Assembly (NCBI GenBank): GCA_964035545.1
Contig: OZ037768.1
Span: forward strand, 19,327,700 to 19,391,699
Origin: Bugula neritina
Lineage: Eukaryota > Animalia > Bryozoa
Direction: 5' to 3'
Length of the DNA: 64,000 bases
Shown: piece by piece, positions 17,701 through 57,200 of the stretch
How the letters are laid out: each line of letters begins with the position of its first letter
How positions within the stretch are numbered: position 1 is the stretch's first letter
The notes under the pieces: generated by a model
Database searches by the model: none
What the model saw: only the letters and a program-made list of their open reading frames with translations
Told to the model about the DNA's origin: nothing
Position numbers and translations under genes: made by a program

Positions 17701-19509
17701 TGATAATTTTTTATGGTTATAACTCATTACCTTGAATCATGTAAAAGACGTAGCTTGCGGTCGTTGCTTACAAAATACCAGCAGAGAATATTGTTAGATA
17801 GCTACTGCAATATGCACATTGAACCACAGGATGTCAACTCTCTTATTGTAGATAGTTTTTTACGTGGAACTACTGAGCAGGAGCATTATTGTAATTTGAT
17901 TCTGCAATAAAATAATTCTACCCAAATTGGCTTTCTCTCGTATTGTTGAGCCAGATAGCTCCTCTATAATGTTTTCAAGTCTAGCATATACTCTCCAGCT
18001 GTTAGACTAGGTTTCATGTCTGCTTTATGTGTGCTATTCTTACACAAGTAGCAGAGAATTGATTGTAGAGATATTGTAGTAGTTTGTGGGTTATAGAATG
18101 AAATCAGGCAGATAACATAACTCCTTGTTATAGAAGAGACAAGAGAGAGTAGAATTCGTGTGCGTGCAGTACTTTATTGTAGCAGAGATACATCCAGTGC
18201 GAGCTCCAGTCCTCAAGTGACTGAAGCTCTAAAATGCGTGTCCTTTTATACCAGTAGAACAAAGGACTTCTAGAACCTTCAACCGACAGCGGGCCGATGC
18301 TCGGCAGGGGATGGCGACATTCGTCATGTCGGCAACCGACACTGATCATGTCGGTAACCAACATTCGGTTTGCCAGCATCCACCTGCCGAACTCGGTCCA
18401 ACTGTCGGTTTACATGAATAAGCAAAAATGAACCCAACCAAGTGTATGCACATTGTAACTTATAATTGGGGAAAAGGGATTAACTATTTACTATGCTAAA
18501 AGCTTAAAGTTGCCTTTATACCTTCACGATTTTCGGACAGAATTTCAATTTGGCCGGGTTTAAATTTTACCGAGTTGCATTGCATTGTAAAAGCCACTCG
18601 TAAAAATTTTTGTACTGTGATAACTTAATCTGCTAATTTTAGAATACGAGTAATAACTCCTTGTAAAAATCGTTTAGTTATTACTTTGGCGATCAGACAA
18701 CGTACTTATACGGTTATAATTATATAGCCTACGCTTTCTCAATTATCGCTTTTATGCTGTCCACTTCACTAATTCAAGAAGTTTACAAAGGGCATCAAAT
18801 AGCTATTATGCAAGTCAAATTTCAATTTCAGAAAGTGAGCAATCGCATCAATATGATTTCAACAAGTTTCAGTTTGACTATTGTTGTGAGTTTTAGCACA
18901 ATTATCAAGCGTGGATTGTATGCGTATTTAGTGTCAATTTAACTAGCAATCACTAGTCTGGCTTGCGTACGATAACCTTTATTTAATTCGATAAACATAA
19001 TTATAACACCACATCAAACTATTATACAACACTGATCAATTACAAACACATGTTACTACTACGAGTCTCTGCTCTCAACAACACATGGTTTCTGCTGGCT
19101 AACCTGCGAACAGTCACTTGACCGGAACCTTGCCTTCCGGTCCCTCTGATTGGATAGTAGAACATAGTTATAAGTATTCCCATACAAGAGGGGACGACCC
19201 CATTATTATACTACATAATCCCATTACACCGCCTCCACCAGCAGAAAGCCCTACTTTCTGATAAACAAAAATAGTATAATAATGCAAGAATGACATAAGT
19301 AAGGAAAATCCACAAAGAAAAAGAAAAGAAATATCAAACGTACGACATATTTATAAGTAAGATAAACAGACGGCCAACACACAGCTAGCCAGCTACAGAG
19401 AGAGAGACCTGGATCGTCACACAGATCGGTCGTTAGCAGATCAAGCATTTACACGATCACAATGTAGTACCCCGAGGATATGCGGGGTGGAATTGTCAAC
19501 TTCCAGCTC

Positions 19510-20391
19510 CTAGTTTTGCAGGAACTGGATCCGGTGTCGTGCTTGCCGTGCACGTAATCTACGCTTAAGGCGTCCCACTGAGCCCTTTAGTTCACTAAGG
19601 CTCATTGTAGTGCTGAGTAAGTCGGGGGTCAACTGAGTAAATTCATCCTGCAGTCGTAAGAGTCTTTCCTCGACGGTTGCTAGTCGGTTAGGCCTGGTTG
19701 GAGTTGGCGTCGCTTCTTCTGGAGAATCTGATGCTTCCATGGGGGTGTTGTCTGGCCGGGGTATGGTTGCAGCGACCGTTTTTACCATAGGGGATTTCTG
19801 ACGGGCGGCTGTTAGCAGTGTATAAAACCCGGAGGATAATGCGGCCCAGGTCAAAGCCTTCTTAACCACTGGTCTGACGGCTTCTAGATACTGGTCATAA
19901 TTGTCCGCGTTCACTACATAGCATTTGCCTGTGAAACAGTCCATCATATATGCCACGACGGGGTATGGGTATACGTCGTGAAATTCGCACGGACAGAAGC
20001 GTAGTAGGAAGTGTGCATTCACATGCAGCCGTAGTCCTTGGTGTGAGGGAAGCTCCTCATAACACACGTGGCAGGTTCGTTGTGAGCCACTTGGTCCCCA
20101 GGCTTCTTCAATTTGTCGCTCCGTCCATCGTGACACCCATTTATGTCTTCGACGCAGTGCCGTTTCCGGTCCGTTATCCAAGGAGGAGAGGGGGTGTAGA
20201 TCTTGTGACCCGGAGTTGGTCGGTCGAGTGTGATCTGCAAGAGTATAACAGTGTAAGAGGGTACACTGAGTACAGCCGGCGTATACAGCTTGGTGGGTAC
20301 TTAACTCAATTAGACACTCGTGAGACTCAGCTAATGAATAGTTGATCGAAAACACACACTGCTGTGACGAACTGTTCAGTCTTAGAGTCAA
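19510..20391 (-). CDS. Accessory ORF3 of element 2: C2H2 zinc finger, CPC module, C-terminal coiled coil
   Basis: CHVC-x12-HVNAH, FCPC, RLATVEERLLRLQDEFTQL. Homologous to 47929-48735 from about 20234 onward; the true start is uncertain. Confidence 0.8.
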   Translation of the reverse strand: MTLRLNSSSQQCVFSINYSLAESHECLIELSTHQAVYAGCTQCTLLHCYTLADHTRPTNSGSQDLHPLSSLDNGPETALRRRHKWVSRWTERQIEEAWGPSGSQRTCHVCYEELPSHQGLRLHVNAHFLLRFCPCEFHDVYPYPVVAYMMDCFTGKCYVVNADNYDQYLEAVRPVVKKALTWAALSSGFYTLLTAARQKSPMVKTVAATIPRPDNTPMEASDSPEEATPTPTRPNRLATVEERLLRLQDEFTQLTPDLLSTTMSLSELKGSVGRLKRRLRARQARHRIQFLQN

Positions 20392-20549
20392 TGTGAATTC
20401 CCACCACTAAAAATCATTACCGAGTCTCCAGCTTATTCTGTTACAGTTAAGCTGATTAATACAGTTTAGTCCTCGTACCAAAAACATAACTAACTCACCA
20501 CTCGATTCTTGGCAAGCCATTGTGAATGAGAGTGGTATGTTTATGATTT

Positions 20550-22831
20550 CTACGTACGTCTACTCAAAGCTGTATCAATGTGATGAAAGAGCGAGCAGCG
20601 TGGTTGTGAAACATGGCTAGGACTTATTACTTCCGGCGTATGAATCTCGTTTGAGATTCCGCCGAAGCAAAAGTTGATATTCTCGTGGTGTTCACAACTC
20701 CCACGTCTTGCCCTCTTCCCCGTACGGTACCTCGTGGGACGTTTGACCGCGCCCTGAACGGCACGTGGTAAGTCTTTGAGATACGCGGGGGTTTGTCTAG
20801 AACACCGTTTTCGAGGTGTCGTCACCAATCAAGGCGGTTTACTCACCCGTGGACGGTCACGTCTCACGGGTGGTGCCTCCAGCCAGTTTGTGACAAATGG
20901 AGCTTTCCTAGCATCTCCATACGGAGCCTGGGGAAGTGTCGTCCTCAGCCAGGGCGGTTTACTCACCCGTGGACGGTCACGTCTCACGGGTGGTGCTTCC
21001 AGCCAGTTTGTGACAAATGGAGCTTCCCCGGCATCTCCGTACGGAGCCCCTCCCGTGGGGGGGTTTTGCACTTCCAGGTCGGTTCCTGACCTAGGAAGTG
21101 GTGGCGGCAGCTTGCACGCTGAGGGCGGTGAGCGCACTTCCCTGAACGGGTGTGGCCTTTCCTGCCTCGCCACTGCTTTGGGTTGCATCCTGGGCGGTTT
21201 GTCGACCAGGTCAGCAGTCTCCGTCTGTCCGGGCCCTTCTGCACTTTGCCTTCGCCGTCCCATCTTGTCAGGAGGGCGGCCGTGCTTACTGGCCCGGCAG
21301 ACTCTGCACTGCCTAACTCTGCGCCGCACTTCACGCTCCATGTTAGGCCAATACCATCAGAGTTGTAGTTCGGTGAGCACCTGTTGGGCTCCCGCGTGTG
21401 CCTGTTGGTGTATTTCTTTTATCAACTCCCGGCGGATGGCGGCAGGACAGAGGGTTCTCTCCTGGTCTGGCTGGTTGTGGTTAGTGGCCAAAGATATGGT
21501 CAATAGACCATCCGGCCCGATCCGCAGTGCGTTCCAACGTCGGCAGTACAGCTGCCACTCGGCGCAGCCCTGCTTCCGTTGTTTGTCACTGGGTCGTCGC
21601 CCTTCCCGTTTTATTTGATAGACGTCGGCTACCACCCCCGGAAGATGTTCCTGAAGGTGTCGTAGCTCCTTGACGCTATCGGTTGAGACGGGTTCGGCGT
21701 GGAGGTTCTGTGCCACCTCTGGGGGCATATCAGGGTACCCAAGGTGAGGTGCAGCCTCGGTTTTGTGTAGTAACGTGGCCGTCTCTTGGCGCTTCTCGTT
21801 ATCTACACAACCGTCCGATTCTCCTGCGATGGCCTGCTGTTACCTTCTTGAACAGAAGGAGTACAGCTCAGTGGAGAGGTGGGTGGTAGGTTCACCGTCT
21901 CCGAGAAGGAGTGGAGGCATGGCACCGAGGTCTTTCCTCTCCGTGTCAGCTGGTTAGAGCTGCGGGCAGGTGGGATACTCGGGTGCGCGCTCTCTACAAC
22001 TCCCGTCCTGGAGGTGCGGCCACCGTCCACCTGGCGGTGGACGGCGCCGCGGGAGTGGCCGGGCATAGTACAGGTACGTACTATCGGCTCTTCTCCCGTT
22101 AGAGGATGGCCAAACTTATCGACACAGGTAAGCTCCCGGCCGCCCATAAACATCGCAGATTAACCAAAATCGATGCGACATCCGTGTCGTTGTAAGAATG
22201 GCATCCCAAGGATGGCGTCCTCTTGGAGCTGTCCGACGATGAACCTCTCTTGGATGGTCTAGTCACAGACGCTCCCAGGGAGTTCAATGATACCGTAAAA
22301 GGGGATGCACGACCCGTCTGCCAGGGTGCCATGATCGCCTTCGTACGGTCCCAACCTGCTTCGGATCTGAGCGCTGAGTGTGTTGAAGAATCGACGACCC
22401 AGGAGGTTGGTGGTGCAGCCCGTGTCTAACAGGAATTTGGCAGGCTTGCCGACTATCTGTCCTGGTAGAAACAGGCTGCTCTCGTGGGGATGTAGTGGTA
22501 TCTTTGGTGACCTCATCTCCCTCGCCCTGGTGGAGGGGTTAGGTTTCTGACGACGACTGGGGACCAGCTGTCGAGGGGGTGGCGCCACGCCTTGTGGCGT
22601 TTGGGCCTTTCCCCTCACAGACTCTGCGGTTCGTCGTTTGTCGAACCTGTTGCGGGGTGGCATTGAGAACACCGGCGGCGAGCGGCTTGTACAGCCTGCT
22701 TGCCGTCTTGGTGGCCGTTCCGCGAGGTCTCGGACGGGTGTCCGGCGTGGCGGACGCCACTGTGTCCTCCCTTGGGGTTTTATCGGCGGCCCGCCGGATG
22801 TGGGAGCATCCGCGGGCCGTCGTAGTTTAAC
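20550..22831 (-). pseudogene. pol: Deleted and frameshifted pol of element 2
   Basis: FLLDTGCTTNLL protease, KEDAILG, IHQQAHAG..CRVC (IN zinc finger) and the PAYLKD tail, spread over several frames. Contains a 120-bp-period tandem duplication at ~20833-21050. Confidence 0.85.
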
Positions 22832-23715
22832 CCTGGTTGAAATCGGGGACAGTGTTTCTGGAAGCGTCCTGGTCTTCCGCACTCCCAGCAGGAGGGGTGT
22901 CCTCTACCAGGCAACTGTACCGGTGGCCCGTCAAGCTCACGGGTAGTGTCTAGCTGGCTGAGAGGGGCCAAGGCGGAGACCAGTTCGGCTAGCATGTCGG
23001 TCATTTGTGCGACCTTCGATGCCACCGTCATCTGCGTCACCTTGGCCACCGCTGGAGTTTCCGCGTTAAGAGCGGTAGGAGCAGCGGAGGGCTCCATGTC
23101 TACCTGACAAGAAGTCGCACGGTTCCGGTGCAGTTGACTCGCCAGGAGGTAAGCTTCCCCTTCTGCGAGCGCACCTTTGACCGTGGTGACTCCCCTCGCC
23201 AGGAGTTGGTGATGGAGTCCCAAGTCGTTGATGGATTGCACGAAGGCATCATAAGTGTACCTCTCACGGTTTACTTGAGGCAGATCGCGGAATGCGATCT
23301 GCGCCAGTCTCATGACCGTGGTAGCGTGCTCTTGTAGTGGCATGTGAGGATCACGCCGCAGTCTTTGGAGACGGGCCCGCGCATCTACAGCGGAGATACC
23401 AAAACGGGCCCGCAAGGAAGCAAAGATCCCGTCGATGTCCGGTCCCACTCCGTATGGCTTGGCTTTGTCTGACAGCGCCATCCTGAGCTTGAGCAATGCT
23501 ATTCTGGGTGGCCACTGTGCAACCTCCATTACATCTTGGAATTCCTGAACGAATTGCTCCACCGGCTCCTCACCTGAGAAGGTGGGCACCCTCAGCCGGT
23601 ACTTCTCTTCATAACATTCCCTATGCACTCTCACTTCTGGTTCTATAGGTATAGCAACGTTATCTTCCTCACCTTCATTCCTCCGAATGGATAGCTCTGT
23701 GCCTCTTTCTGTCAT
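22780..23715 (-). CDS. gag: Gag of element 2
   Basis: 311 aa, clearly homologous to 53260-54213 (PTFSGEE.VEQF, AQWPPR.ALLKLR, CWECG knuckle with His replaced by Arg). Confidence 0.9.
   Translation of the reverse strand: MTERGTELSIRRNEGEEDNVAIPIEPEVRVHRECYEEKYRLRVPTFSGEEPVEQFVQEFQDVMEVAQWPPRIALLKLRMALSDKAKPYGVGPDIDGIFASLRARFGISAVDARARLQRLRRDPHMPLQEHATTVMRLAQIAFRDLPQVNRERYTYDAFVQSINDLGLHHQLLARGVTTVKGALAEGEAYLLASQLHRNRATSCQVDMEPSAAPTALNAETPAVAKVTQMTVASKVAQMTDMLAELVSALAPLSQLDTTRELDGPPVQLPGRGHPSCWECGRPGRFQKHCPRFQPGLNYDGPRMLPHPAGRR
22788..22831 (-). promoter_or_regulatory. Putative -1 ribosomal frameshift signal of element 2
   Basis: G TTA AAC, 6-nt spacer, then stem GGCCCGC-GGATG..CATCC-G-GCGGGCC. 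The pro ORF is in the -1 frame. Confidence 0.75.
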
Positions 23716-26699
23716 CTTGATATACGCAAAGATCCCACCGCTGCCACCACTGTTGTGAGTTTTAGCACAATTATCAAGCGTGGATTGTATGCATATTTAG
23801 TGTCAATTTAACTAGCAATCACTAGTCTGGCTTGCGTACGATAACCTTTATTTAATTTGATAAACATAATTATAACACCACATCAAACTATTATACAACA
23901 CTGATCAATTACAAACACATGTTACTACTACGAGTCCCTGCTCTCAACAACACATGGTTTCTGCTGGCTAACCCGCGAACAGTCACTTGACCGGAACCTT
24001 GCCTTCCGGTCCCTCTGATTGGATAGTAGAACATAGTTATAAGTATTCCCATACAAGAGGGGACGACCCCATTATTATACTACGTAATCCTATTACACTA
24101 TAAAGGGGTACCCGGACAAGCATTATTAACTTAAACTCAGTACTTTTTTTAGCAGAGTTATGAACGCAACTTAACAATAGCCATAGATTTTAAGGTATTA
24201 GAAAGTTAGCTATAACTTAGCTATAACTACAGTACTTAGAAAAATAGCCATAAGCGATGTGTCAAGGGAGATAAATCTGATATTTACCACAGTATCCAAG
24301 CTTTCACTCAACACTTGGTGCTAAAAGTATAATAAACAAAGAACTTTAAATCAAGCTTTTTCCAAAAGAAAATGTTGAAATTTTTTATTGTCAGGTTTAA
24401 ATTACAAACATAGATATGAGCTCACAATTGGACATGTTTAAACTAAGCATATTGGGAATTTATTGATAGTTTATATAAATTAATAGACCCTTTTCCAATG
24501 CTCCTTATTGCCAATAAATTTGCAATTAGGAGTTGTGCTCATTTTTAGAAATATAGTACCTATTAGAATCAGTTGGTAGTACTCCTACCAAACTATTATA
24601 AACTTAACTTACTTCCTTTCAATAACTTACTGATAGCTCTATATAATTATGCAAACCCAACGAGGTAAGCCAATATCATATGCATTTTATAGTACCTAAA
24701 TTCCTGCTTTTAGAGTAACTACGCTTCTGGGAAACTGATTTTTGTGATCATATTACTTTTATAATGTTTAGCAAATTTATACAAGCACATTATTTATATA
24801 ACTGACTTTTATATTATTTAGCTTTTACCAGCAGGTGTAAAAATAAAACTGATAGAAAGTACAACTTCTGTGTCTGAAAATTTTGGCTCATACTTTTCGG
24901 GCCAGCTACACTTTTATCAGAGATAAAACTTAAAGCATGACATGTCAAGGGAATTTGTTGTACAAGTACAATAATTGAAATTTAGACATTGCTTGTTAGC
25001 CTCTCAATTTTTTGATAAAAATAAAGAATTGCAGGTTTTGAATCTTAAAATGACACTGTTGGAAAAGACTTTTAAATAAATATTATAAAAGAGACAACAA
25101 AATAGTTTATCAGAACGCTTAGAAGGCAGCCAACAGTATCAACTCAGCCAGTCAATAACCTACTCCAATATTACAAAATGATTTATATCACAATGCCCTT
25201 TACCATACAAGAGTGTCCTTTATAAAGTATATTAGATCTAGTTAGGTTTACACTCAATGATTACAGGTGTTACTTAAAAAACTTCTAAATAAACAAAAAC
25301 AGAAAATAACATAACCCTCACAATTATTTTGTCAATAAAGTGTAAGCTATGTGCAGTTTGGAATATAATGTGGTTCATCTCTATAAAAGGGAGGGCATGG
25401 AACATAATGTGGGTTTATTATAGTATTTATCAGATTATCTACAAGCTAACCTGAGGTGATTGCATGGCTACTGCCCTACAATAGCATTCGGATTTTCTAC
25501 CAGCTTGTACAGCTTGGATATTGGCTATTGGCTTGGTAAAAGTAAAGACTGCATGAGGGACTCTTATTCTGACTGTCAAGTAAGTTGAACGTGATATTAC
25601 ACAGCTAACTTCAAACCAAATGGCAGCTATGAGAAAAATGAGTACAGCCAACTTTCTCTCTTTACTTCTTTATAAGCTGCATGAACTCATGTCATAAAAA
25701 CGCAGTTAATTTAGTCAAAAATCTATTGCCAAACCCATTTCACTAAAATATTTCACAAAAAGATATTGTGGAACGGCTTTCACAAAGACGCTTTCATTTT
25801 AATCATTATAGCAACAAGCTATTGTCAGAGTATTAATCAAGCTATTAACATATTAACAATTACCATTATATTTTAGTTTTGTTTGCAAATTGGTATTTTT
25901 CATAAGGGAGATTGCAATTGGCATCTCTCCTAAGGCAATTTGACGTTATTGCTAGGAGAATTGCCAATTCTTTTAGAACAGTTTCGAATTCTTCTAGGAG
26001 AGATTGCAATTGGCATCTCTGCTAGGAGAGATACTATATACTGTACTCAGCAAATATGTTTTTGTTATTGTAATTATCTTATATTCACTACAGTGATTTA
26101 CGCAATCCAATAAATGAGTGTTTTAGCAACTTTTTTCTACCATGCAGTGTTTTGTTTATATATCAAAGAATAGCAAATTAATGGCAAATAAAGTGTGTTG
26201 TTTTAGTAGAAAGACAATTATTTTATTGTGTTTTAAGTTTATTAGATTTTTTTAGTATAGAAGCACAAAAGTTTCAGTTTGGAGACCAATTTGGAAAATG
26301 ATTTTTTTCCTAACTTAAATTCATAAATTTTGATGATAGTTATTGCATGTAAGCCTGTGCTATATAATTATTTATGTGGTTGTCAATCCTTTTGAGCAGC
26401 TAGAAGAGTAACAGCAATGATTAAGATAAAATTGTTCACTAATGTAGGTGCTTGTTTCAAACAGCACTTTATGCTTTGAGCCAATGAGGTTCATTATTAG
26501 TCAATTAGAGACCGTCTATTTAGAAAAAGAATACTTTGTTTTTGAATGTTCAAACGAGGCCTTGTCAACAGTTATATTTCTTTGGAAAAAACAATGCTTT
26601 TGTCACATGTGAAAATCAACAGTATAACATATCAGCAAGCTTTACAACTCCGATCATTATTTTGCAGTGAGATACACTGGTGTATAATTCCATCGTTTT

Positions 26700-46000: not shown

Positions 46001-47928
46001 GTGGAGCACATCAATACTAACCTTTGTTGCTATATATCACTGCAAAGCCAACATTCTACTGATCTCAGATCTACAAGTACCTTTTTTGTATCTCTGGGGG
46101 GTTCACTCGTGAGAGGGGTGGATATACAGGGGTTCAGCATTTTTCAAGGGGGGACTATGGAACTCTAAATATTTAATTTTCTGAGTAGTTTAGGTTTGAC
46201 ATTAAAAATATTTTCAAGAAATGTTGTACACATATGAAACTTTCTCTAACAAAAGTTTTGACCAAAAATAAAAAAGTGGGCGGAGCCTATAATATGACAA
46301 ACTACTTTTTTGCATATACCGGATATTTTCTAAACTGCTACTTTTCTGTTCTAGCATTTAGAATGTTGATTTTTGGTATGAAAATACTCTATTGTGTTCT
46401 AATAATGCTCTCTAGTTTTCATCACATTTTGAACTATATAACTTCTTTCCCAACCATGACAAATAAATTATTATTGCATTTCTACCCAAAAATATTGCTC
46501 TTTGTTGATAGGAACAACATCAGCATGATAAAAATCTATTCTTAGTGTATTTATATTAGCTTATTGACTTATTTTGAATAATTGATTACGATCAATACTA
46601 TTAAGTATTAATATTCAATATTTACTGTATAAATTGAGTGTCAGAAATAATTAACAGACCACTAATATTCGATTTTTTTATTCATAAGTATTATAACATA
46701 AAATATGGTTCATTAATGAAAAAGTAATATTATAATTTCAGCATCACAAGCAATTACTATGCTCTTTTATATCAGATATTGGTAGACCTTTTTAATTGTA
46801 TTTATTTATAAATAAGATAGTATTTAAATTTTAGTTCACAATAGATCAAGCTTTGTTACAAAGTTTTGTTATCTCTAGCATTTATATACCAAATTAAATA
46901 GATCATAATTCTTCATCAGAACTGTGCTTGTTGCCATCATCATCATAATCAGGCTTTTTGTTTGAAAAAGAAGACTGGCCACTTTTATTGTTGCAATCGA
47001 AACATTCACATAAACCACAGCATTTCACCATCAGGCGCTTGCATTTGCATGCTTTACTCTTACAGCCGGCTTTTTTGTATTTACATGCTGTTAAAATCAC
47101 ATCTGCGTTGCTCTCAAAATCATATTTTATTGGAGTGAAGTTAGTATCCCAACCATGGTCAAAAATTGGCTGATGAAGTAAAATAGGTGTTAAAGCAAGT
47201 TGCCAAAGTGTAACTTGATAATTAGCTCATTTCACGTGATATTTTAGGGAATTCCTACTAGGTGGTAGCTATGCTTCACTGGAGACATTTTTTAAAGCCA
47301 ATATTTTATATCTTGCTTCAGTGATATTGTTATATTTTTCAGAATTAGGGTTGATATGCAATCCAGAGAGTCTAATTACTTGTTATAGAACTGCACCAGG
47401 ATAAGTCGAGTGAACGAGTATATATTTTAAACACACTGATACATTACAAAAACGATACAAATACATTTGACAATTCACACATCTAGACTATTCAGCACTC
47501 TAACTTCGACTGACTAACAGCGGGAAAACTATTACTGCTACTAACTAATCCGAAGCCGCTAATTGGCTATCCATTGTTCCGGGTCAATTACACGACCCTA
47601 TATACTGTGCTGCTGGTAGCTCCACGAGCCACCACACCGCCCCCACCAGCAGAAAGCCCTCTTTCTGATATAAAAAAAAACATTCATCATTAACCACATA
47701 CATCAGTAGACCAAAAGATAATACATAACACATATAAAGATATCTAATAACAGACAGAGTCATTATAACAGCAAGTTACATACAATTGGCCAGCTATAGA
47801 GGAGGAATACCGGCTAGCTGTAGTATTGGACAAAGAGTCGGCCTGTCGAGCAGTCAAGCATTTACATGATAGTCTTGGGTCTCCCAAGAGGACGAAGTTG
47901 TGGATTATTCCGGGTAGCAGAACCAGAG

Positions 47929-48735
47929 TCAATGTTGGGCACGCCGATGTTTGGCTTGGCATGTACGTAGCTTCTGTTTAATCCGGCCCACTGATCCTTT
48001 CAGTTGGAAGAGCCCCGTCGTGGTATTGAGCAGGTCTGGTGCTAACTGGGTAAATTCCTCTTGCAGTCGGAGGAGACGTTCCTCTACTGTGGCCAGGCGA
48101 GCAGGGTCTGGGGACGGTGTCCGTCTGCGGCGCAGAGGGGGACTGGGAGACCTGGTTCGTCTCTTCGTCGGGGTCGGGGAGACCTCTCCTTCTTCGGGGT
48201 AGGAAAGCTCCTCGGGGGTGTACGCAATCTGAGGGCGGTCAGATACCAATGGGGATTGTTGCCTGGCATAGTCTAATACGCGTTGGAAACCCGAGGTCAG
48301 GACGGCTAACAACATTGCCTTCTTTACTAGAGGTCGTATCAGAGTGAGGAATTCTGGATAGAGCTTGGCATCCACCACGTAATTCTCTCCGGAGAAACAG
48401 CCCGTCGCTCGATGTCTGGTGACGGGGTAGGGGTAGACATCATTGTATCCGCAGGGGCAGAATGTCAGTAAGAGATGGGCATTGACATGTAGCTTCAGGG
48501 AGCGGTGAGAGGCACATTCTTCGCCACAAATCTGGCACCGCGTCCGTCCTCTGGACCCCCAGGCCGTTTCTATCTGCTCCTCTGTTTCTGGAGACACCCA
48601 CCGCCAACGGCGGCGCAGTGGCTCGGGCCGGTCACCATTGGCATACTCCTCAGGATGCGGAGCGGGAAGTGCTCTATCCCGTACCCTGGTTGTAGCGGGT
48701 CGAGTGTAATCCCACGATCTGTTGTCGTAAGACAT
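47929..48735 (-). CDS. Accessory ORF3 of element 3: C2H2 zinc finger, CPC..H..C module, Arg/Ser-Pro tract, coiled coil
   Basis: 268 aa, ATG-initiated: CQIC-x12-HVNAH, FCPCGY..H....C, KRRTRSPSPPLRRRRTPSP, RLATVEERLLRLQEEFTQL. No signal peptide or TM segment evident. Confidence 0.85.
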   Translation of the reverse strand: MSYDNRSWDYTRPATTRVRDRALPAPHPEEYANGDRPEPLRRRWRWVSPETEEQIETAWGSRGRTRCQICGEECASHRSLKLHVNAHLLLTFCPCGYNDVYPYPVTRHRATGCFSGENYVVDAKLYPEFLTLIRPLVKKAMLLAVLTSGFQRVLDYARQQSPLVSDRPQIAYTPEELSYPEEGEVSPTPTKRRTRSPSPPLRRRRTPSPDPARLATVEERLLRLQEEFTQLAPDLLNTTTGLFQLKGSVGRIKQKLRTCQAKHRRAQH

Positions 48736-48758
48736 ACTGAATTGTGAAATGGTTCGAA

Positions 48759-51700
48759 CTACTGCTTAGGAACACGTCTACTCTTGACTGCATCAGCGTA
48801 TGAAAAGATCGAGCAACGTGGTTGGGGTGCGTGAGTAAGACTTTGTGCACCCGGCGGATGAATTTTGTTTCTATTTCCGCCGATACAAAAGTTGATATTT
48901 CCGTGGTGTTGACAACTTCCACATTTGCTCGATACTTTTCTCGTACAGTTTTCCCTTAGACTTTCATACGCGCCGCTTTTAACGCAGTCGCATACGAAGT
49001 CCTTCAAATATGCGGGGGTTGCCTCGTACGCTGTCCCCTTTCTAGGGGGGGTGACACGCTCGCCGGTTCGTTAGCAGGGGCCTCTAATGGCGTCTCTACT
49101 TCACCGTTGGCGGTCACTTCTTCTTGTTCTCCGGATGGAGCCCCTCCCTCCGTGGGGTTTTGCACTTCCGGAACCGGCTCGGTTTCTGGAAGTGATGGAA
49201 TTAGACTTGGCGGCGGCGGACACGCTTCTGTTGGCAAAAGCTGTCGCTCTTCTCTCACCAAGTCTTCCTCCCGCGGTATGACCACTTCATATTCAGGTCC
49301 ATGCCGCCGTCGCCCGCGTGTTGTTGTCTGCCTCCTGGGCTCCAACAACGGGGGGGCTTCTCCCACTGCGTCGGGGCTAGCCCAATACGGCTTCAAGCGA
49401 GACTCATTCTGGATAGACACCTGTCCTGAGCGCTCAATCTTGTACGTATGGTTGGGCATAGCCTCGACGATCACATAGGGTCCCACGAACTTAGGCTGTA
49501 ACTTAGCCGCCTGTCCGCGACGCCTACGGTAATTGACCATCCACACCTTATCCCCTGTTTGGTAGAGGGGTGGTTCCTCGGAATCTTCGTGTCGCACCTT
49601 CCACTGCTGTTCGCGCAGTATATCGTGTGCGGCCTTCATCCGTTCCACTAGCTCACTGGCATACTCGTGAATCGAGTTGTCTAGCTCTGGAACGTGGTAA
49701 GTGAGATGGTCAGGTACCCGGGTCTCTCTCCCGAGCATCAAGAGGTTTGGGGTCTCACCAGTACTGGTGTGTGGGGTGCTACGGTATGCACGCATGACCT
49801 GCGGCAACACCGTGTCCCATTTCTCTTGACTGCGTCCAAGGAGAAGACTCCGGAGCGCATCACCTAGCATCCGGTTGTTGCGCTCCACCACCCCATTACC
49901 TTGGGGGTGATAGGGGGTGGTCCTGCTCTGATTTACTCCCCAGAGGCGGCAAAGGTCGCTCATCAGTTGAGACTGGAATTGAGCGCCTTGATCAGAGTGT
50001 ATCTGTTCGGGAAGACCGAAATAACAGAATACATGTTGGTCTAGTACCCTGGCCACTGTTGGGGCTGATGCATCTGGGATAGCCAGAGCATCCGCCCACC
50101 TAGTAAAGTGGTCGGTTAATACCAAGATCCAACTATTGCCTCTGGGGGTCAGGTCAACAGCTACCACTTGCCACGGCCTGCCAGCATATAGCCTCCGCCG
50201 TCCCGCTTCACCAGGGAGACGGCCATGCTTGCTGGCCTGGCAGATTTCGCACTGCTTTACTCTGAGCCGGACATCCCGCCCCATTTTGGGCCAATACCAC
50301 CGGAGTTGTAATTTGGAGATCACTCTCTTGACCCCTGCATGGGCCTGTTTGTGAGTGTCCCAGATTAACTCACGGCGTATGGCACTGGGGCAGACCACCC
50401 TTTTCCTCTCCGGGTGTCTGCCGTTGGCAGCTAGAGAGATGGTCAATAGACCATCCTGCCCGATCCTCAGCGAGTCCCAACGCTGGCAGAGTAGCCGGAA
50501 CTCGGCGCATCCCTGCCGTATGCGTTCCTCGTTGGGTCGTCGCCCGTCCTTTTTAGCCCGATATATGTCTGCCACTACCCCAGGCAACTCTTCTTGGAGC
50601 TTCTTCAGCTCCTGGACATTATCGGCCAATACAGGATTGGCGCGGAGGTTCTGTACAACCTCCGGGGACTCGTCAACCTCCTGCCTGAGTTGACCCTGGT
50701 CCCAGTCAAACGGTGCTCCGTGGTGAGCCAATGTCTCCAACTCGCATCGCGGGGGACCTCCGTCCCTCCTCTCGATGTTGAGACACTGTTTGCAACCTCT
50801 ATCAGGTCGGCGGCTCAAACCATCCGCATTGCTGTGTCTCTTGCCCGGTCGATGTTCGATCCGGTACGAGAATTCAGCTAGGATTTCGAGCCACCAGGCG
50901 ACCTGACTGGAGGGCTCTGCTCTCCTGCACAACCAGATCAGCGAGGCATGATCCGTACGCAGCCGGAACTTCCTGCCGTATAAGTATGGTCTGAAGTGCT
51001 TTACTGACTTAATTACTGCCAGCAGCTCCTTGCGGGTAGTGCAGTAATTTCGTTCAGCGGGTGAGAGAGACTTACTGTAGTAGGCTACTACTACCTCTCG
51101 GCCTTCCTGCACTTGAGACAGCACAGCGCCAACATTTTGGTCACTGGCGTCAGTGTCGAGGATGTACTCCAGAGTGGGGTCTGGGTAGGCCAAGATGGGC
51201 GCCGTTAGTAGGCAGCCCTTGAGGCGGTCGAACGCTCCTTGTTCGACTGGGGTCCACTGCCACGTCACTCCCTTTGCGGTGAGCCGGTTTAACGGCTGTG
51301 CTATGCCCGCAAAGTCTGGTATGTATTGCCTGTAATACCCTACCAGCCCCAAGAAAGCCCGGAGTCCGGTCAAGTCTTGGGGGGTGACCCAGTCTTCTAT
51401 CGCCCGTACCTTTTCGGGATCCGTTGCCACGCCGTTTCGACCGACAACGTGCCCCAGGTACTTGACCTCCGGCTGCAATAGAGCGCACTTGGAAGGTTTG
51501 AGCTTAAGACCGGCACCTCGGAGTCTCTCGAAGACCTCTTGCAGACGACGGACATGCGTCTCGAAGTCTGGGGAGATCACGATGACATCATCGAGGTAGA
51601 CCAGCAGTGTCTTCCAATGGAGCCCGCTAAGGACTTGTTCCATCAGCCTCTGGAAGGTGGCTGGGGCGGAGGTTAGCCCGAAAGGCAACACCTTCCACTT

Positions 51701-52162
51701 CCACAAACCGTCCCGTGTGATAAACGCCGCTTTCTCCTGGGCGTCGGGACTCAGAGGAACTTGCCAATAGCCACTCAGCAAGTCTAACATACTGAAGTAC
51801 TTGCTGCCGGCTAGGGCGTCCAATGACTCGTCAATACGAGGTAGAGGATAGGCGTCCTGTATGGTTACGCTATTGAGTTTGCGGTAATCCACACAGAACC
51901 GCCAACTGCCGTCTTTCTTCCAGACCAGTACGACCGGCGAGCTCCACGCACTATGGGCGGGCTCTATCAGTCCCCGGTCCAGAAGATCCCGTACTTGTCG
52001 GCTAACCTCCTTCTCTTTTGCCGGCCCCAGCCTACGTGTGGGTTGCCGGACAGGGACTGTCCCTGCAGTCAGCGGTATTTCGTGTCTGACAACTCCAGTC
52101 AGCCCCACGTCCTGATCTCCGCTGCTGAACACATCACCGTAGTCGCGTAGTAACTTCGCCAT
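48759..52162 (-). CDS. pol: RT, RNase H and integrase part of element 3 pol (ORF 49004-52162 plus frameshifted tail to 48759)
   Basis: LPFGLTSAPATFQR and YLDD RT; DTDASD, RTDHASL RNase H; HKQAH..CEIC, HSDQGAQF, GVVER integrase. Restoring 1 bp near 49012 gives RQPPAYLKDFV and extends the frame to 48759. Confidence 0.93.
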
Positions 52163-52165
52163 AGC

Positions 52166-53311
52166 TTAGCGTTCTTTGTTACTCGCGCAGCCGCCACAGG
52201 CTGTATCATACAACTCCCGGAGATGTGCTGGGACTGTTCCTCGCCCTTGAGTAGGGCACCGAGGGAATGCCTCCGTCGCATCACCCAGCGACGGGCCCAC
52301 GTCCCCCTCCTGAACAGAGTGAAAACGGCCCAGCATAGCCCCAGCCGGAAGCTTGACAGACTCGGTAAAGGGGTTGACGCACTGCACTAAGTTCTCCCCT
52401 TGCTCAGTCAGCTGATTCAGACTGCTGGCAAGTTGGATCTTTTCGTGCGCGCCTTCAACTACCCTGAGTCCAGAGATCCGGCTATTGTTCACCCTGCAGT
52501 GAATGGTAGCCCGGGAGCGGCCTGGTATGGTACGGTTGCGTACCACCTGCACACCTCCCACCGAAGAGCGGCCGAACTTGTCGACGCAGGCGAGTTCTCG
52601 CCCGGACATCATCATCGCAGATTTACTAAAATCGATGTGACATCCGTGCCGTTTTAGGAATGGCATCCCGAGGATGGCGTCCTCCTTGAGCTGACTGACG
52701 ATGAACGTCTCTTGGATCGTTTGATCACGGACTCGTCCCGCCAGCTCATTTATACCATAGAAGGGAAAGCACGACCCGTCAGCTAGGGTGCCATACTCCC
52801 CCTCGTATGGTTCCATCTCGCCCCTGACCCTAGCACTGAGGGTGTCGAAGAGTTGGCGGCTTAAGAGGTTCGTGGTACAGCCTGAATCAATGAGGAAAGT
52901 AACAGCTTTGCCTTCCAGTTTACTGGGCAAGAAATAGCTGTTCCCATGGGGCTGCACCTGAACTCTCTCTTCAGGCCTTACTCTCGCAGGGAGTACCTCC
53001 CTCGCTTTGGGTCGCGAAGGAGGTCTCTTGGGATGGTGGTAGGTGGGCCTCGGAGTTGCCGAGGCTAGATTTCCGGCTACTTTTGTTGGCTCCCATCCAG
53101 ATTCTTGGGCCGGTAGCCCTTCGAATCGATTGTGGAGGGGCATGGAAAAGGTAGCGGCGGGGCGGAGCCCCTTGCTGGTCCGTCGTGGCTGTTGCCACTG
53201 TTGGTTACCAGTACGCGGTGCCCGTCTGGGTGATCTGCGTTTCTTCTTCCCTGGAGGTTTCATCGTCGGCCCGCAGGAGGTGGGAACATCTGCGGGCCGC
53301 GGTAGTTTAAC
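52166..53311 (-). CDS. Transframe peptide and aspartic protease of element 3
   Basis: FLIDSGCTTNLL and EDAILGMPFL. In the -1 frame relative to gag and in frame with RT, separated from it by one TAA (52166-52168). Confidence 0.88.
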   Translation of the reverse strand, partial: VKLPRPADVPTSCGPTMKPPGKKKRRSPRRAPRTGNQQWQQPRRTSKGLRPAATFSMPLHNRFEGLPAQESGWEPTKVAGNLASATPRPTYHHPKRPPSRPKAREVLPARVRPEERVQVQPHGNSYFLPSKLEGKAVTFLIDSGCTTNLLSRQLFDTLSARVRGEMEPYEGEYGTLADGSCFPFYGINELAGRVRDQTIQETFIVSQLKEDAILGMPFLKRHGCHIDFSKSAMMMSGRELACVDKFGRSSVGGVQVVRNRTIPGRSRATIHCRVNNSRISGLRVVEGAHEKIQLASSLNQLTEQGENLVQCVNPFTESVKLPAGAMLGRFHSVQEGDVGPSLGDATEAFPRCPTQGRGTVPAHLRELYDTACGGCASNKER

Positions 53312-54213
53312 CCCGGAGTTAGGAAGGGACAGTACTTGCGGAAATGTCCTTGATTTCCGCATTCCCAGCAAAAACTGACCGTTTCCCCCTGTGGCGGCGC
53401 CGGTGGCCGTACGGGCTCAGTGGCGGTACCTACTGGGGTTTGGGGTGTCAGTGTTGCTATCAGTTTGGCCAGCATGTCTGTCAGTTGAGTGACTTTCGAT
53501 GCTGTCGCCACTTGAGCCACGGCAGCCGTGGCGGAGGTTTCCTCCTCTCGTCCCGCTGCCGTGTCCGTGCGGTCTACCTCCACTTGACGGGAGCTCCCGC
53601 GACTTTTATGCATTTGACTTGCTAGGAGGTAAGCTTCCCTCTCAGTCAGAGCATCTTCAACGGTGGTGACTCCCCTAGCTAGAAACTGGTGATGGAGACC
53701 CAAATCGTCGACAGATGCTATGAAAGCGTCGAGGGTATACCTCTCGCGGTTGACTGGGGGCAAGTCGCTGTATGCGATCTGTGCCAGCTTCATGACCGCG
53801 GCGGCATGCTCCCGCAGCGGGGTGCGGGGATTACGCCGCAACCTCTGCAATCGGGCCCTGGCATCTGTAGCAGAGAGGCCGAAGCGGGCCCGCAGAGAAG
53901 CAAAGATACTATCGATGTCTACGCCCAGCCCATAAGGCTTGGCTTTGTCCATCAATGCCATTCTAAGCTTCAGCAGGGCCACCCTAGGGGGCCACTGGGC
54001 GACGTCCATTACGTCGCTAAACTCTTGGATGAATTGTTCCACCTCCTCTTCGCCCGTGAAGGTGGGCGCCTTTAACCGGTAGCGGTCTTCAGCTAGTTCT
54101 CGCGGAACCCTTCGCTCTTCTACTACATGGTTAACAGGCATTGTCTCTACAGCATTGTCTCTACGCTCACCTTCTACTGCCGGTGGTTGCGTTCCAGCAT
54201 TTTCAGTCTCCAT
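53260..54213 (-). CDS. gag: Gag of element 3
   Basis: 317 aa with the CCHC knuckle CWECGNQGHFRKYC. Confidence 0.92.
   Translation of the reverse strand: METENAGTQPPAVEGERRDNAVETMPVNHVVEERRVPRELAEDRYRLKAPTFTGEEEVEQFIQEFSDVMDVAQWPPRVALLKLRMALMDKAKPYGLGVDIDSIFASLRARFGLSATDARARLQRLRRNPRTPLREHAAAVMKLAQIAYSDLPPVNRERYTLDAFIASVDDLGLHHQFLARGVTTVEDALTEREAYLLASQMHKSRGSSRQVEVDRTDTAAGREEETSATAAVAQVATASKVTQLTDMLAKLIATLTPQTPVGTATEPVRPPAPPQGETVSFCWECGNQGHFRKYCPFLTPGLNYRGPQMFPPPAGRR
53268..53311 (-). promoter_or_regulatory. Putative -1 ribosomal frameshift signal of element 3
   Basis: G TTA AAC, 6-nt spacer, 9-bp stem GGCCCGCAG/CTGCGGGCC. Confidence 0.78.
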
Positions 54214-57200
54214 CTTGGATGCACTATCCCACTGCTGCCACCACTGTTATATTTTTCAGAATTAGGGTTGATATGCAATCCAGAGAGTCTAATTACTTGT
54301 TATAGAACTGCACCAGGATAAGTCGAGTGAACGAGTATATATTTTAAACACACTGATACATTACAAAAACGATACAAATACATTTGACAATTCACACATC
54401 TAGACTATTCAGCACTCTAACTTCGACTGACTAACAGCGGGAAAACTATTACTGCTACTAACTAATCCGAAGCCGCTAATTGGCTATCCATTGTTCCGGG
54501 TCAATTACACGACCCTATATACTGTGCTGCTGGTAGCTCCACGAGCCACCACAATATCATCATAGGCACTGTATAAGTTGGAGACAAATCATTCACACTC
54601 TAAGTATGTTTCATCTGATAATGGGGACCAATCATCAGAACCTAAAGACAGATTATAGCTGCCCTTTTCAAGTACCTCCAAAGCACGCTTTTTAGATATT
54701 CGGAAAACAGAACTTACTGAGTCACAACCTGTAAGTGCATGGAGTGATAACATATTCTTGAGAACTTTTTGTGGAATTTTTTTAGCCAATTCTGAAAGAG
54801 ATATATATCTTTTGTGACTCCCCATTCCAACAAAGATTACTACATCTTTATTAGCCTGCTCAGGTAAAACATTACTAAGATGATGTTAAGCGCAATAATA
54901 GCAACACCGGTATCTACTGATCTTATTACTACCAAATCGTAATCACTCAGTGCATCAGCTGCGTGAAGGATTAATCTCGTGTCTGCTTCATCATGATTGG
55001 ATTTCAATTTGTTACAATTGTAACGATAATGGTTTTGCAGAACACAGACTTCTTTGATGCTGCACACTAAAAATGTACCAGCTGGAATTTTCTCAATATG
55101 TCTACTCCATGCACCTTCACTATGTAATCTACCAACTCATTTTTGTTGTGAATATTGCTCAGAAAAGCACCCCAGTTTTTAGGAACAGGCACGTTGTTAT
55201 GAATAATGGAAATAGAGCACATCTATTGGGCACCCTGTCTAATACGCTCTTGTGCTTTAATTGATGTTTCAGAATACACGTCAAACACCACATCAACCTT
55301 GTATATCCTTTGCCACATTCAAGAAATATTTCCAGCATCTTCAGAGCATAGTTATAAAAAGTGCCTGATGCTTTTGTCGAGTGAAGTATGCACATATCAT
55401 CAATAATGATCGATTTGTTGGTGGACAGTTGACTATCATCATTGGAGACCCTGTTTCCAAGATATTTCTGTTCCAAAATATGCATTAGTTGCGATTTGCA
55501 TGTTTTTCTCATCTGTCCGTTTTCAGTAAATAGAGCAAGAGGAATGGGACCAATTTCTTTCTCTAGAACTGTTTGAAAATCTACTTCTCGGCTTTTGGCA
55601 CTTGTGAGAAGTTTAGCAAATGATATTTTAGGAACATTTGGTTTAATGGCCGGTTGAAGTGATTGAGCCATAAAGTCAAAGGAAGGGATTTGAAGCCGGT
55701 GAAAAGCAGTATAAAATGCTTTTATTGCATTCAAAAGTCTATCTTGGATAAACTTTTGAGCCGTTTCTGCTCCCTGAGCCATAGCAGTCACTATTGACAA
55801 GGAGGTCTCCGCATCGGGACTTACTCCAGTAGCAATATTAAGAAGTTCAGGTGAATTATTGCTAAACAACTTATCAAACTGCTGTAATGTAAAAAGAATT
55901 GCTTGTATATCAATCTCATCCTTCATAGTTGTAATGATTGTGTCTTCCTTGTGTAGTGTTGATGACTGTGAGGCTATTTGGCAAAAATCCTTTTGCAAAG
56001 AAAGCAGTTGGGCTCTGATATGACTAGTTAAGAACCATTTTGTCCGAGCTTTTTCGTGGTTGCTAATGCCAATAATACCTCCAGATGTTTTACTGTCTCG
56101 GTTCAAAGTTTGCTCCAAGACCTGATCTGGAGCCATACCTGCAATTCTTTTTCCTGTCCTGTTTACGGTGAATGAACCCTTTGCAAACATTCCATAAACT
56201 TCTGGAGCAGATTCAGAGAAATTTAGCATATCAATAAGGTATATAGGCAGCAACCTCGAGTAGTTTGTGCGATCATACGCAAAAAATACTGGTAGCATTG
56301 CCTGCATACTGTCCAAATATAACTGCCAGTTGCCACTACGCTCAGCTCAAATAAATCCCCACATGGCTTCTACTGCAGGAAGGTAGGAATTCCAGAACAG
56401 TGAAAGGTTAGATTTTAATTTAGTATCAGAATCAAACTTTTTTATAGCAGTAGCAACCTTATCTGCGACAGTGGTCCATTCACGTAAGTTATCATCAATA
56501 GAAATATTATGAGAATCTGATCGGTCAAACTGATCATTTTCTTGAAGCCATTCCGAAAGAGATTTTAGTTTCTGCCTTGATATTGCATCATATACAAAAT
56601 CTTGTGTGCCCGTACACCTCTGTTATAATGCTTACCATATAGCACCTGTTTTACTGTAACTTCAGAATATATATCACTGTGCACAAGAACTTGGGCGAGG
56701 CCGCTTGATTTTACCATTTTGCCAAGTGCTGCCATGTAATTCATCAAGATATGAAAACCGCCCATTCGAATTATTGTGTTTGAAAATTCAGTTGGTTTGT
56801 TCTATTGACTCTCTTTGGCAATCTTGTAGATAGTTTAGTCAAATGTAATTAATGAATGTTTCTTTAGCTGCAGAAGGATTGTATAAATTGTTGATGGATC
56901 TGTTGATGGTGCATTAATCATTGGGCAATTTACCCAATGACTGATCTTTTATTATCTTCTGCGGCAACCAAATTTCTTACATTAAAGCTACTCCAGCGGG
57001 GCAGTTATGTGTAGAAGGATTTATATCCAATTGAAATAGTTTGATTGGGGCAAGTCTTGCCAATAGCCATGCTGTATTTAGATTACATGAATCCTCAAGT
57101 GACTTTTTCATATTCAGCAATGTCTCTTGACTAAGTTTTGTGATAAAATATGATTTTGAGAGCAACGCAGATGTGATTTTAACAGCATGTAAATTCAAAA

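Follow-up and report, generated by a model that had tools for sequence, protein, structure and literature searches.

LTR retrotransposons are for the most part regarded as simple gag-pol(-env) elements whose regulators are those of the host. A locus in the bryozoan Bugula neritina raises the question of whether an animal Gypsy element can encode a regulator of its own and, if so, at what level such a regulator would act. The window examined here, a stretch of 64,000 nucleotides of contig OZ037768.1, is AT-rich animal DNA that contains three LTR elements, all on the minus strand. In two of these, elements 2 and 3, a preliminary description had noted an additional open reading frame (ORF3) and had presented its product as a candidate for a new system.

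Two related Gypsy families with a gene behind pol

Elements 2 and 3 are Ty3/Gypsy retrotransposons by their LTRs, PBS, PPT and target-site duplications and, in element 3, by the PR-RT-RNase H-IN order; Ty3 is the nearest PDB match to the RT-RNase H of element 3. The PBS is one that we take to be of the tRNA-Leu type. The principal features are:

47328..54553, minus strand: element 3, a Ty3/Gypsy LTR retrotransposon (LTRs, target-site duplication, Pfam domains)
53260..54213, minus strand: gag of element 3, of which the initial 43 nt form first exon A (predicted)
49004..53416, minus strand: protease, RT, RNase H and integrase frames of element 3 (Pfam; best PDB match Ty3 Gag-Pol)
47929..48735, minus strand: ORF3 of element 3, 268 aa, between pol and the PPT
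47929..48710, minus strand: main exon of this ORF3
47637..47678, minus strand: PPT-side segment of element 3, ~42 nt, conserved with element 2
18882..24097, minus strand: element 2, a related Gypsy family, internally deleted
19510..20234, minus strand: main exon of ORF3 in element 2, between pol and the PPT

The two 309-nt LTRs of element 3 (47328-47636 and 54245-54553) are identical, and the insertion is flanked by a 4-bp target-site duplication (ATAT). Its pol carries an in-frame stop at 52166-52168; therefore, element 3 was probably mobilized in trans, as a young copy. Element 2 has lost RT, RNase H and much of its integrase, and retains gag with its splice donor, the end of pol, a spacer with a conserved block, and ORF3; its LTRs differ at 6 of 347 positions and its target-site duplication is ATAG. 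That the LTRs of the two elements cannot be aligned, as was originally remarked, is borne out by blastn, which gives no match at E 1e-10; they have in common one AT-rich patch of 31 nt (score 30 against a maximum of 28 in 300 shuffles). The family that bears ORF3 is present in high copy number, with thousands of contig pieces in the sequencing run X2, and its identical LTRs show that it was recently mobile.

Two minor features of these elements may be recorded here. In the pol tail of element 2 (20813-21048), beside the internal deletion, there is a tandem duplication of ~120 nt whose copies are 90% identical. Within the gag/pro overlap of both elements (~53300-53315 and 22820-22835, minus strand) GGGTTAAAC is followed by a GC-rich stretch, an arrangement which, by its general pattern, we take to be a likely -1 frameshift signal.

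ORF3 is a gene under purifying selection

The extra ORF between pol and the PPT is indeed common to both elements, and every motif listed for it at the outset was found. The uninterrupted ORF3 of element 3 is the processed form; an intron divides the gene in element 2 as well as in sister copies of element 3. Over 234 aligned codons the two proteins are 55% identical, with 90, 65 and 143 differences at the first, second and third codon positions. The segment RLATVEERLLRLQ is the same in both and the count of 8 silently different codons among its 13 is exact; in the gene as a whole, 77 of the 129 identical residues differ silently in their codon. Synonymous sites are saturated (pS 0.79; dS is not estimable) and pN is 0.31, which gives a pN/pS of 0.39 with a bootstrap 95% range of 0.32-0.47. 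By region, the ratio is lowest in the coil (0.24), followed by the zinc region (0.33), and reaches 0.82 (0.50-1.34) over the first 30 codons. Six of the nine sister-copy variants within ORF3, among the variants listed, are silent. The purifying selection suggested earlier is upheld, and ORF3 is a real, selected gene.

Nor is this gene an env, as had also been recognized: its product has no strong hydrophobic stretch, signal peptide or transmembrane anchor, and no Env match in Pfam or BFVD. Averaged over 19 residues, Kyte-Doolittle hydropathy peaks at 1.51 in element 3 and at 0.97 in element 2, and the sole apolar helix of the protein sits within its folded domain.

Two alternative first exons

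The signals from which the splicing of ORF3 was deduced are the following:

54165..54173, minus strand: splice donor A of element 3, AAG/GTGAG, first intron base 54170, phase 1
23667..23715, minus strand: gag leader exon A of element 2 (ATG at 23715) with donor A (first intron base 23672)
48711..48735, minus strand: mini-exon B of element 3, ATG at 48735, 25 nt, phase 1
20499..20520, minus strand: mini-exon B of element 2, ATG at 20520, 22 nt, phase 1
20235..20498, minus strand: intron of element 2, 264 nt, GTGAGT...TTGCAG
48710..48711, minus strand: intron-loss junction of element 3 (sister-copy contig ends, run X2)

Despite the dissimilarity of the two gag leaders, AAG/GTGAG lies exactly 43 nt after the gag ATG, in phase 1, in both elements. 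The acceptor in element 2 is a pyrimidine-rich sequence with a CAG ending at 20235, in phase 1, and conservation across the family starts there. In the homologue P0024 the first 14 residues match the start of the element 2 Gag at 10 of 14 positions and are followed directly by the main exon; this is the best of ~128,000 six-frame positions in the window, the next best reaching 6. P0024 shows the gag-donor junction, on a contig that may be RNA or a retro-copy. Among 16 close homologues that reach upstream of the main exon (the unrelated pattern matches P0092 and P0123 were left out of this count), 15 have Ser or Leu before it, the residues that a YAG acceptor in phase 1 would yield; the sixteenth is P0024.

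A second donor, GTGAGT at 20498, follows mini-exon B in element 2, and both mini-exons are in frame with the main exon. Element 3 can be aligned to element 2 as far as this second donor and then jumps to the main exon. The contigs of run X2 that diverge from element 3 exactly at 48710/48711 include, among the 7 loose-end rows listed of 42, two that enter a GTGAG donor after 48711 and five in which a TTTCAG acceptor precedes 48710. A GT-AG intron still present in sister copies has been removed precisely from element 3, and from these contig ends and the alignment with element 2 it follows that element 3 is a genomic copy of a spliced RNA. It is in addition a clean natural example of an intron lost through reverse transcription of spliced RNA. 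The sister copies have 1-nt indels just upstream of the mini-exon ATG, and none is listed within 48560-48740; this confinement therefore marks the ATG as a start. The possibility that the ATG of element 3 is a deletion artefact was considered and rejected in view of the element 2 alignment, the sister-copy contigs and the in-frame mini-exons.

Both X1 and X2 consist of contigs. The RNA run X1 provided 21 low-depth contig pieces with no splice joint, and the gag-donor joint is not among the joints listed (15 of 143). The comparisons above show that ORF3 has two first exons as alternatives, each of them spliced to the same acceptor.

A compact double-zinc-finger domain and a coiled coil

The 268 residues of the protein consist of one two-finger domain, a linker and one long helix:

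48256..48630, minus strand: compact double-zinc-finger domain, aa 36-160 (AlphaFold, family alignment)
48106..48240, minus strand: variable Pro/Ser/Arg linker with basic clusters and SP/TP sites
47935..48105, minus strand: C-terminal coiled coil, aa 211-267, with an RhxxhE motif at its start

With 99 diverse alignment rows, AlphaFold predicts aa 36-160 as one compact domain (pLDDT 95.2, pTM 0.86); these diverse rows were needed, since with 41 close homologues the zinc region was poor (mean pLDDT 57.6). The domain comprises a helix with Trp46, finger 1 (ligands C67 C70 H83 H87), finger 2 (C93 C95 H108 C113), a YxVD strand and three helices. Of the motifs first described, the C2H2 finger stands, and the FCPC...H...C sequence that had been listed separately proves to be the second zinc finger. 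The element 2 copy has a Tyr at the conserved His of this second finger. Finger 1 has the C-x2-C-x12-H-x3-H spacing and the beta-beta-alpha form of the C2H2 class; canonical TGEKP-linked finger repeats were not found, the two fingers being joined by a five-residue apolar link and the second having a CxC knuckle. The finger-1 helix is basic: of 131 domains, 102 have R or K at +2 and 107 have one of the two at +5. At +6 the residue is L, V or I, and thus hydrophobic, in 107 of these domains. The net charge of the domain is +5 to +6.

Foldseek gave no match to the domain in the PDB and BFVD at E <= 0.001, VIA-align found no Z >= 5 among 48,161 chains, and Pfam gave sub-threshold matches at most for the two ORF3 proteins of the window. 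Such an absence is not proof of a new fold. The finger pair alone weakly matches solved structures, superposing best on the DNA-binding tandem C2H2 pairs of Kaiso, SALL4 and ZBTB proteins (Z 3.3-3.8, rmsd 2.7-4.3 A over 50-57 residues; the best is Kaiso, with Z 3.8 and rmsd 3.0 A over 57 residues). An RRM-like fold was not found in the structure comparisons of the protein.

The C-terminal tail is less uniform than the domain. Of 52 near and 40 distant proteins with tails of at least 60 aa, 49 and 26, respectively, have a coil there by a home-made score (p < 0.05 against shuffles). Arg-rich patches are present in 41 of the near and 23 of the distant tails, and the RhxxhE motif in 33 and 3. Leucine-rich export signals of class 1a, 1b, 1d or 2 have no match in the protein; matches to classes 1c and 3 all lie inside the folded domain or the heptads (the class patterns were taken from general knowledge).

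A deeply diverged family, in part fused to integrase

A word-seeded search recovered 72 family members among 3261 candidates, and a profile search of 1.84 billion representatives recovered 122 at E <= 0.001. The family is deep, with identities down to ~20%. In 195 proteins there are 176 domain hits, 131 of which cover >65% of the domain, and 70 of these 131 are <45% identical to element 3 (the distant set). Even in this set the ligands C67, C70, H83 and H87 are retained in 93, 99, 99 and 96%, and C93, C95, H108 and C113 in 99, 100, 93 and 79%; W46, T51, I55 and the V121-D122 strand are kept as well. The Pfam C2H2 cut-off is reached by 1 of 71 distant homologues. In the ESM Atlas, generic C2H2 leads stay at <0.9 and clusters at 0.94-0.95. 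On metagenome contigs around relatives, 150 pattern matches of an alignment scan yielded none that was confirmed and a degenerate pattern yielded 0; on viral contigs around relatives there were 57 matches, none confirmed.

Organism names were available for 4 of the 30 clusters looked up, and all are bryozoan (Watersipora subatra and Bugula neritina). The annotated gene models are XP_067940964 and XP_067944745 in W. subatra and KAF6040922 and KAF6040923 in B. neritina. Some homologues (P0094/P0194, P0142, P0224, P0225) carry two tandem copies of the domain. Both Bugula models have consecutive locus tags on one scaffold, and those of Watersipora are RefSeq models with isoforms. It is possible that the tandem-domain homologues of bryozoans are domesticated genes, and the bryozoan homologues may be host genes rather than ORFs of elements.

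Two homologues unite the domain with Pol. In P0195 a single ORF contains RNase H, integrase, a linker of ~380 aa, the domain and the coil, and its Pol is 55% identical to that of element 3 over 593 aa; in P0228 a single ORF contains the C-terminal part of integrase (53% identical over 137 aa), a linker, the domain and the coil. The domain is in frame with integrase in these two proteins and out of frame in elements 2 and 3. Pol sequence was seen in 2 of 157 domain-bearing proteins, most of which come from short contigs. No long fused form occurs among 7982 candidates of 971-2770 aa, a negative of little weight because P0195 itself is a cluster member and not a representative; fused forms of ~470-970 aa are covered solely by the profile search of 1.84 billion representatives. 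The link of ORF3 to this Gypsy lineage is seen in the two elements of the window and in two distant families, and may be less than strict. A tree of 78 rows and 118 columns, built by a quick method, is too weak to say whether fusion or split came first. The Pfam search of the window elements and the fused proteins gave no chromodomain match.

The N-terminal arms of distant homologues frequently contain a tile of acidic residues with W/F/Y/L. Such tiles occur in 18 of 39 distant arms versus 3 of 34 C-terminal tails, and pooled shuffles of the arms give a mean of 6.4 and a maximum of 11, but shuffles that preserve each arm's own composition reach 18 (mean 11.8), and the rule, with thresholds from general knowledge, is a loose one that fires on three of four control Gag and Pol proteins. 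The window's own subfamily has no long acidic arm, and a tile anywhere in 11 of 63 members. The arms of the distant homologues P0116, P0123, P0125, P0156 and P0195 have in common a short R-x-P-Y-K motif, which resembles a PY-type nuclear import signal. The linker of the fused forms resembles the arm of the free proteins, with an RxPYK-like motif in P0195 and an acidic tile in P0228.

A conserved block before mini-exon B

Between the end of pol and mini-exon B there is a second conserved feature:

48774..48922, minus strand: conserved block of element 3, with ~75% nucleotide identity to element 2
20556..20704, minus strand: its copy in element 2

These 149 nt are ~75% identical while the synonymous sites of ORF3 are saturated. 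An open frame that continues behind the end motif of pol overlaps the block; in each element its stop lies 23-29 nt upstream of the mini-exon ATG. Conservation of the block as protein was rejected: its mismatches are distributed 13/13/13 over the codon positions, and 4 of 27 identical residues differ silently as against 77 of 129 in ORF3. Given this even distribution, the constraint must therefore lie at the nucleotide level. The block has been kept both in the deleted element 2 and in the intron-less element 3.

As RNA, the block is more stable than all 200 shuffles in both elements (z -4.9 and -4.2, for windows chosen by eye; the mean z across windows of these elements is -1.3). It ranks first of 73 windows in the fold scan of element 2; in element 3 four windows outside the block have z <= -4.1, and the block window lies outside the top 8 of 102. 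In a consensus fold of the two sequences, 3 of 30 pairs are changed on both sides. Rfam gives 0 matches to the block. A TATA or CCAAT box was not found in it, and it shares 8-9-mers at most with the LTRs. Its role may be that of an internal promoter, of an RNA response element or of a signal for translation to re-initiate. It contains in both elements an inverted repeat, CGGCG...CGCCG (48852-48882 and ~20622-20652); sister-copy variants are listed in the loop and the flanks of this repeat and none in its arms. The repeat could be an RNA stem or a site for an oligomeric DNA binder.

What does the ORF3 protein do?

The original proposal, an oligomeric nucleic-acid-binding regulator encoded by the element, is supported in part: the protein is selected, non-Env and element-encoded, with zinc fingers and a heptad region, while its binding and oligomerization are predictions. 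All of the readings that we consider start from a basic zinc-finger protein with a coil, presumably nuclear and presumably oligomeric. Our preferred one, held tentatively and at somewhat below an even chance, is that by analogy with the foamy-virus Tas the protein is a DNA- or chromatin-binding regulator that switches on transcription of its own element. The block would act as an internal promoter that gives an early ORF3 RNA; the protein, oligomerized through its predicted coil, would bind element DNA with its basic first finger; an acidic N-terminal arm of the kind seen in distant homologues would activate transcription; and more LTR-driven gag-pol RNA would result, from which the gag-leader splice would provide a second, LTR-driven supply of ORF3. 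We favor action on DNA because the finger pair resembles DNA-binding pairs, because distant homologues have an acidic-hydrophobic arm, because an exon with its own ATG behind a conserved block recalls the internal promoter and Tas of foamy viruses, and because DNA binding fits the free as well as the integrase-fused forms. However, the structural matches are weak (Z < 4), DNA-bound fingers abound in the PDB, and RNA is likewise a ligand of C2H2 fingers; the apolar +6 of finger 1, moreover, is unlike that of typical base-reading fingers. The window's subfamily is missing the long acidic arm and the tile rule is loose; the block has neither TATA nor CCAAT and only 8-9-mers in common with the LTRs, and it folds well as RNA inside the gag-leader intron, a property that suits control of RNA export.

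The latter is the essence of a rival reading that we judge rather unlikely: the spliced protein would bind the structured block, oligomerize and, in the manner of Rev or CERV, let genomic RNA exit the nucleus. The block's location in the gag-leader intron would restrict it to unspliced or partly spliced RNA, and the logic of expression is that of Cer1 CERV (PMC10309623). Its retention in both the deleted and the intron-less element, its fold (z -4.9/-4.2; first of 73 windows in element 2), the 3 of 30 pairs changed on both sides and the Arg-rich patches of the tails all agree with such a role. However, other windows of the elements fold equally well, two sequences cannot establish covariation, Rfam has no match, and the protein has no export signal of class 1a, 1b, 1d or 2; the acidic arms and the integrase fusion would also be left unexplained. 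The fusions are accommodated if the domain began as a C-terminal extension of integrase, a tether for integration targeting or the pre-integration complex comparable to the chromodomain that forms the integrase C-terminal module of chromoviruses, and was later split off and supplied from spliced RNA. P0195 and P0228 have this very organization, and the pol tail frame of both window elements stops only 23-29 nt before the mini-exon ATG. We nonetheless consider it improbable that tethering is the present function: a stop, a frame change and an intron part ORF3 from pol in elements 2 and 3, Pol sequence is seen in 2 of 157 domain-bearing proteins (though most are from short contigs), the arm-like linker makes separate expression likely even in the fused forms, and the splice design is not accounted for.

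The remaining explanations require less space. A trimeric nucleic-acid binder comparable to LINE-1 ORF1p, serving as RNP chaperone, or a sequence-specific anti-silencing protein, would be in keeping with the RhxxhE motif of 33 of 52 near tails (a motif described as a trimerization motif in L1 ORF1p; PMC5940361) and with a high-copy, recently mobile family; with the motif in just 3 of 40 distant tails, no RRM-like fold and nothing positive on silencing, this is a quite improbable role. Finally, ORF3 could be a host zinc-finger gene recently captured as a passenger with no role for the element, as the annotated bryozoan gene models, some with two tandem domains, might suggest. Against this stand selection over a distance at which synonymous sites are saturated, splice signals that belong to the element and are connected with gag, and the recurrence of one Pol lineage in families whose domains are only 20-30% identical; we regard it as extremely improbable, and the recent capture that would have contradicted the initial interpretation is largely dismissed on the same grounds.

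To return to the transcriptional reading, it can be extended into a broader scenario in which an env-less Gypsy lineage evolved its own version of a complex-retrovirus circuit: an internal promoter and a gag-leader splice would feed a self-encoded transcription factor with an undescribed double-zinc-finger fold, whose domain would have begun as an integrase tail, been split into a spliced gene and been domesticated in bryozoans. As a whole, this scenario is speculative and rather unlikely to hold in every part.

Relation to known systems

No match of the ORF3 protein to a described family was found in Pfam, PDB, BFVD or the literature searched, in agreement with the initial impression. Among the titles and abstracts listed, none describes a C2H2-plus-coil ORF3 in an animal Gypsy element; an unnamed earlier annotation may exist in Repbase, Dfam, GyDB, supplements or subscription journals. 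The available parts of PMC13524379 do not mention zinc finger, C2H2, accessory, splicing or coiled, and those of PMC8556966 do not mention additional ORF, ORF3 or zinc. To speak of a new system is nevertheless too strong, as spliced accessory ORFs behind pol (Env, Cer1 CERV, the ORF3s of bdelloids) are of a known kind. What is new is the protein family and the design with two first exons.

The closest parallel is CERV. Its RNA is spliced, it has an N-terminus in common with Gag and a leucine zipper together with a Cys-rich loop, and gRNA export requires it; of 517 aa, it has H, M and G-protein-like domains besides a putative C4 loop, is encoded over the gag region and is reported from nematodes only (PMC10309623). 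Like CERV, the ORF3 protein is a non-Env accessory protein of an animal Gypsy element, with a spliced RNA, a Gag-common N-terminus, a zipper, a putative zinc site and a predicted oligomeric state. Unlike CERV, it has ~250 aa, two C2H2/C2HC fingers and a terminal coil, is encoded behind pol and has a second first exon; judged by description and not by sequence comparison, it also differs in having no H, M and G-protein-like domain set. With foamy viruses, whose internal promoter drives Tas (PMC3185757), there is a likeness in the accessory ORF before the 3′ LTR, the internal start within the upstream coding region and the proposed self-activation, whereas Tas (Bel1) belongs to env-containing Retroviridae and an internal promoter for ORF3 is only presumed. 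No sequence or fold match to Tas is among those listed from the Pfam and structure searches.

The pair HIV Rev/RRE resembles ORF3 in combining a spliced, small, basic, oligomeric (here predicted) protein with a structured and conserved RNA segment located in an intron, but the ORF3 protein has no clear export signal and the block is a candidate element only. HIV Rev is not known to contain a zinc-finger domain. Among metazoan Gypsy elements, spliced ORF3s include the Env-F of errantiviruses (PMC12992720) and, in bdelloids, GDSL, DEDDy, CC and TM types (PMC5408684); the accessible text of these two papers does not mention zinc-finger ORF3s. These genes occupy the same genomic slot and are spliced from a short upstream exon or within gag, whereas ORF3 encodes no signal peptide, transmembrane anchor or enzyme domain. 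Finally, although finger 1 is of the beta-beta-alpha C2H2 type and the pair superposes over ~50 residues on the Kruppel-type arrays of Kaiso, SALL4 and ZBTB proteins, there is no TGEKP linker, finger 2 has a CxC knuckle and a mostly Cys end, and both fingers are part of one compact domain with additional helices and a YxVD strand that have no PDB match.

In the parts of the literature searched, CERV is the one self-encoded regulator found among animal Gypsy elements. If our interpretation is true, ORF3 would represent another such family, unrelated to CERV and deeply diversified, which has alternative first exons and a cis-block under conservation; this would suggest that control in the style of complex retroviruses arose more than once among the Metaviridae. 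The analysis provides a new zinc-finger domain, modelled with high confidence, and names the 149-nt block as its candidate target, by which the choice between control of DNA and of RNA becomes directly testable.

Other features of the window

Element 1 (9914-15353) is a third, unrelated Gypsy element with identical 111-nt LTRs and an apparent 5-bp target-site duplication. Behind its pol there is also an extra ORF (10323-10937, minus strand), with GNS...DGLHP motifs that to us recall SGNH/GDSL esterases; it has no match in Pfam or the PDB. GDSL-type ORF3s have been described in bdelloids (PMC5408684). Inverted repeats of 1.17 kb that are 94.5% identical (45968-47130 and 57143-58283) flank element 3 together with an ORF at 55159-56346 (minus strand) that has no Pfam match, and element 3 seems to have inserted into a DNA-transposon-like unit of ~12 kb. 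Duplications at spacings of ~7 kb, 80-95% identical, were seen at 30500-34540/37570-41510 and 790-1830/8210-9200, and the host DNA contains long (TA)n and (CA)n microsatellites. An open frame of 263 aa at 60841-61632 (plus strand) has a weak NHL-repeat match (E 0.17) and is probably a beta-propeller exon, either of the host or borne by a repeat.
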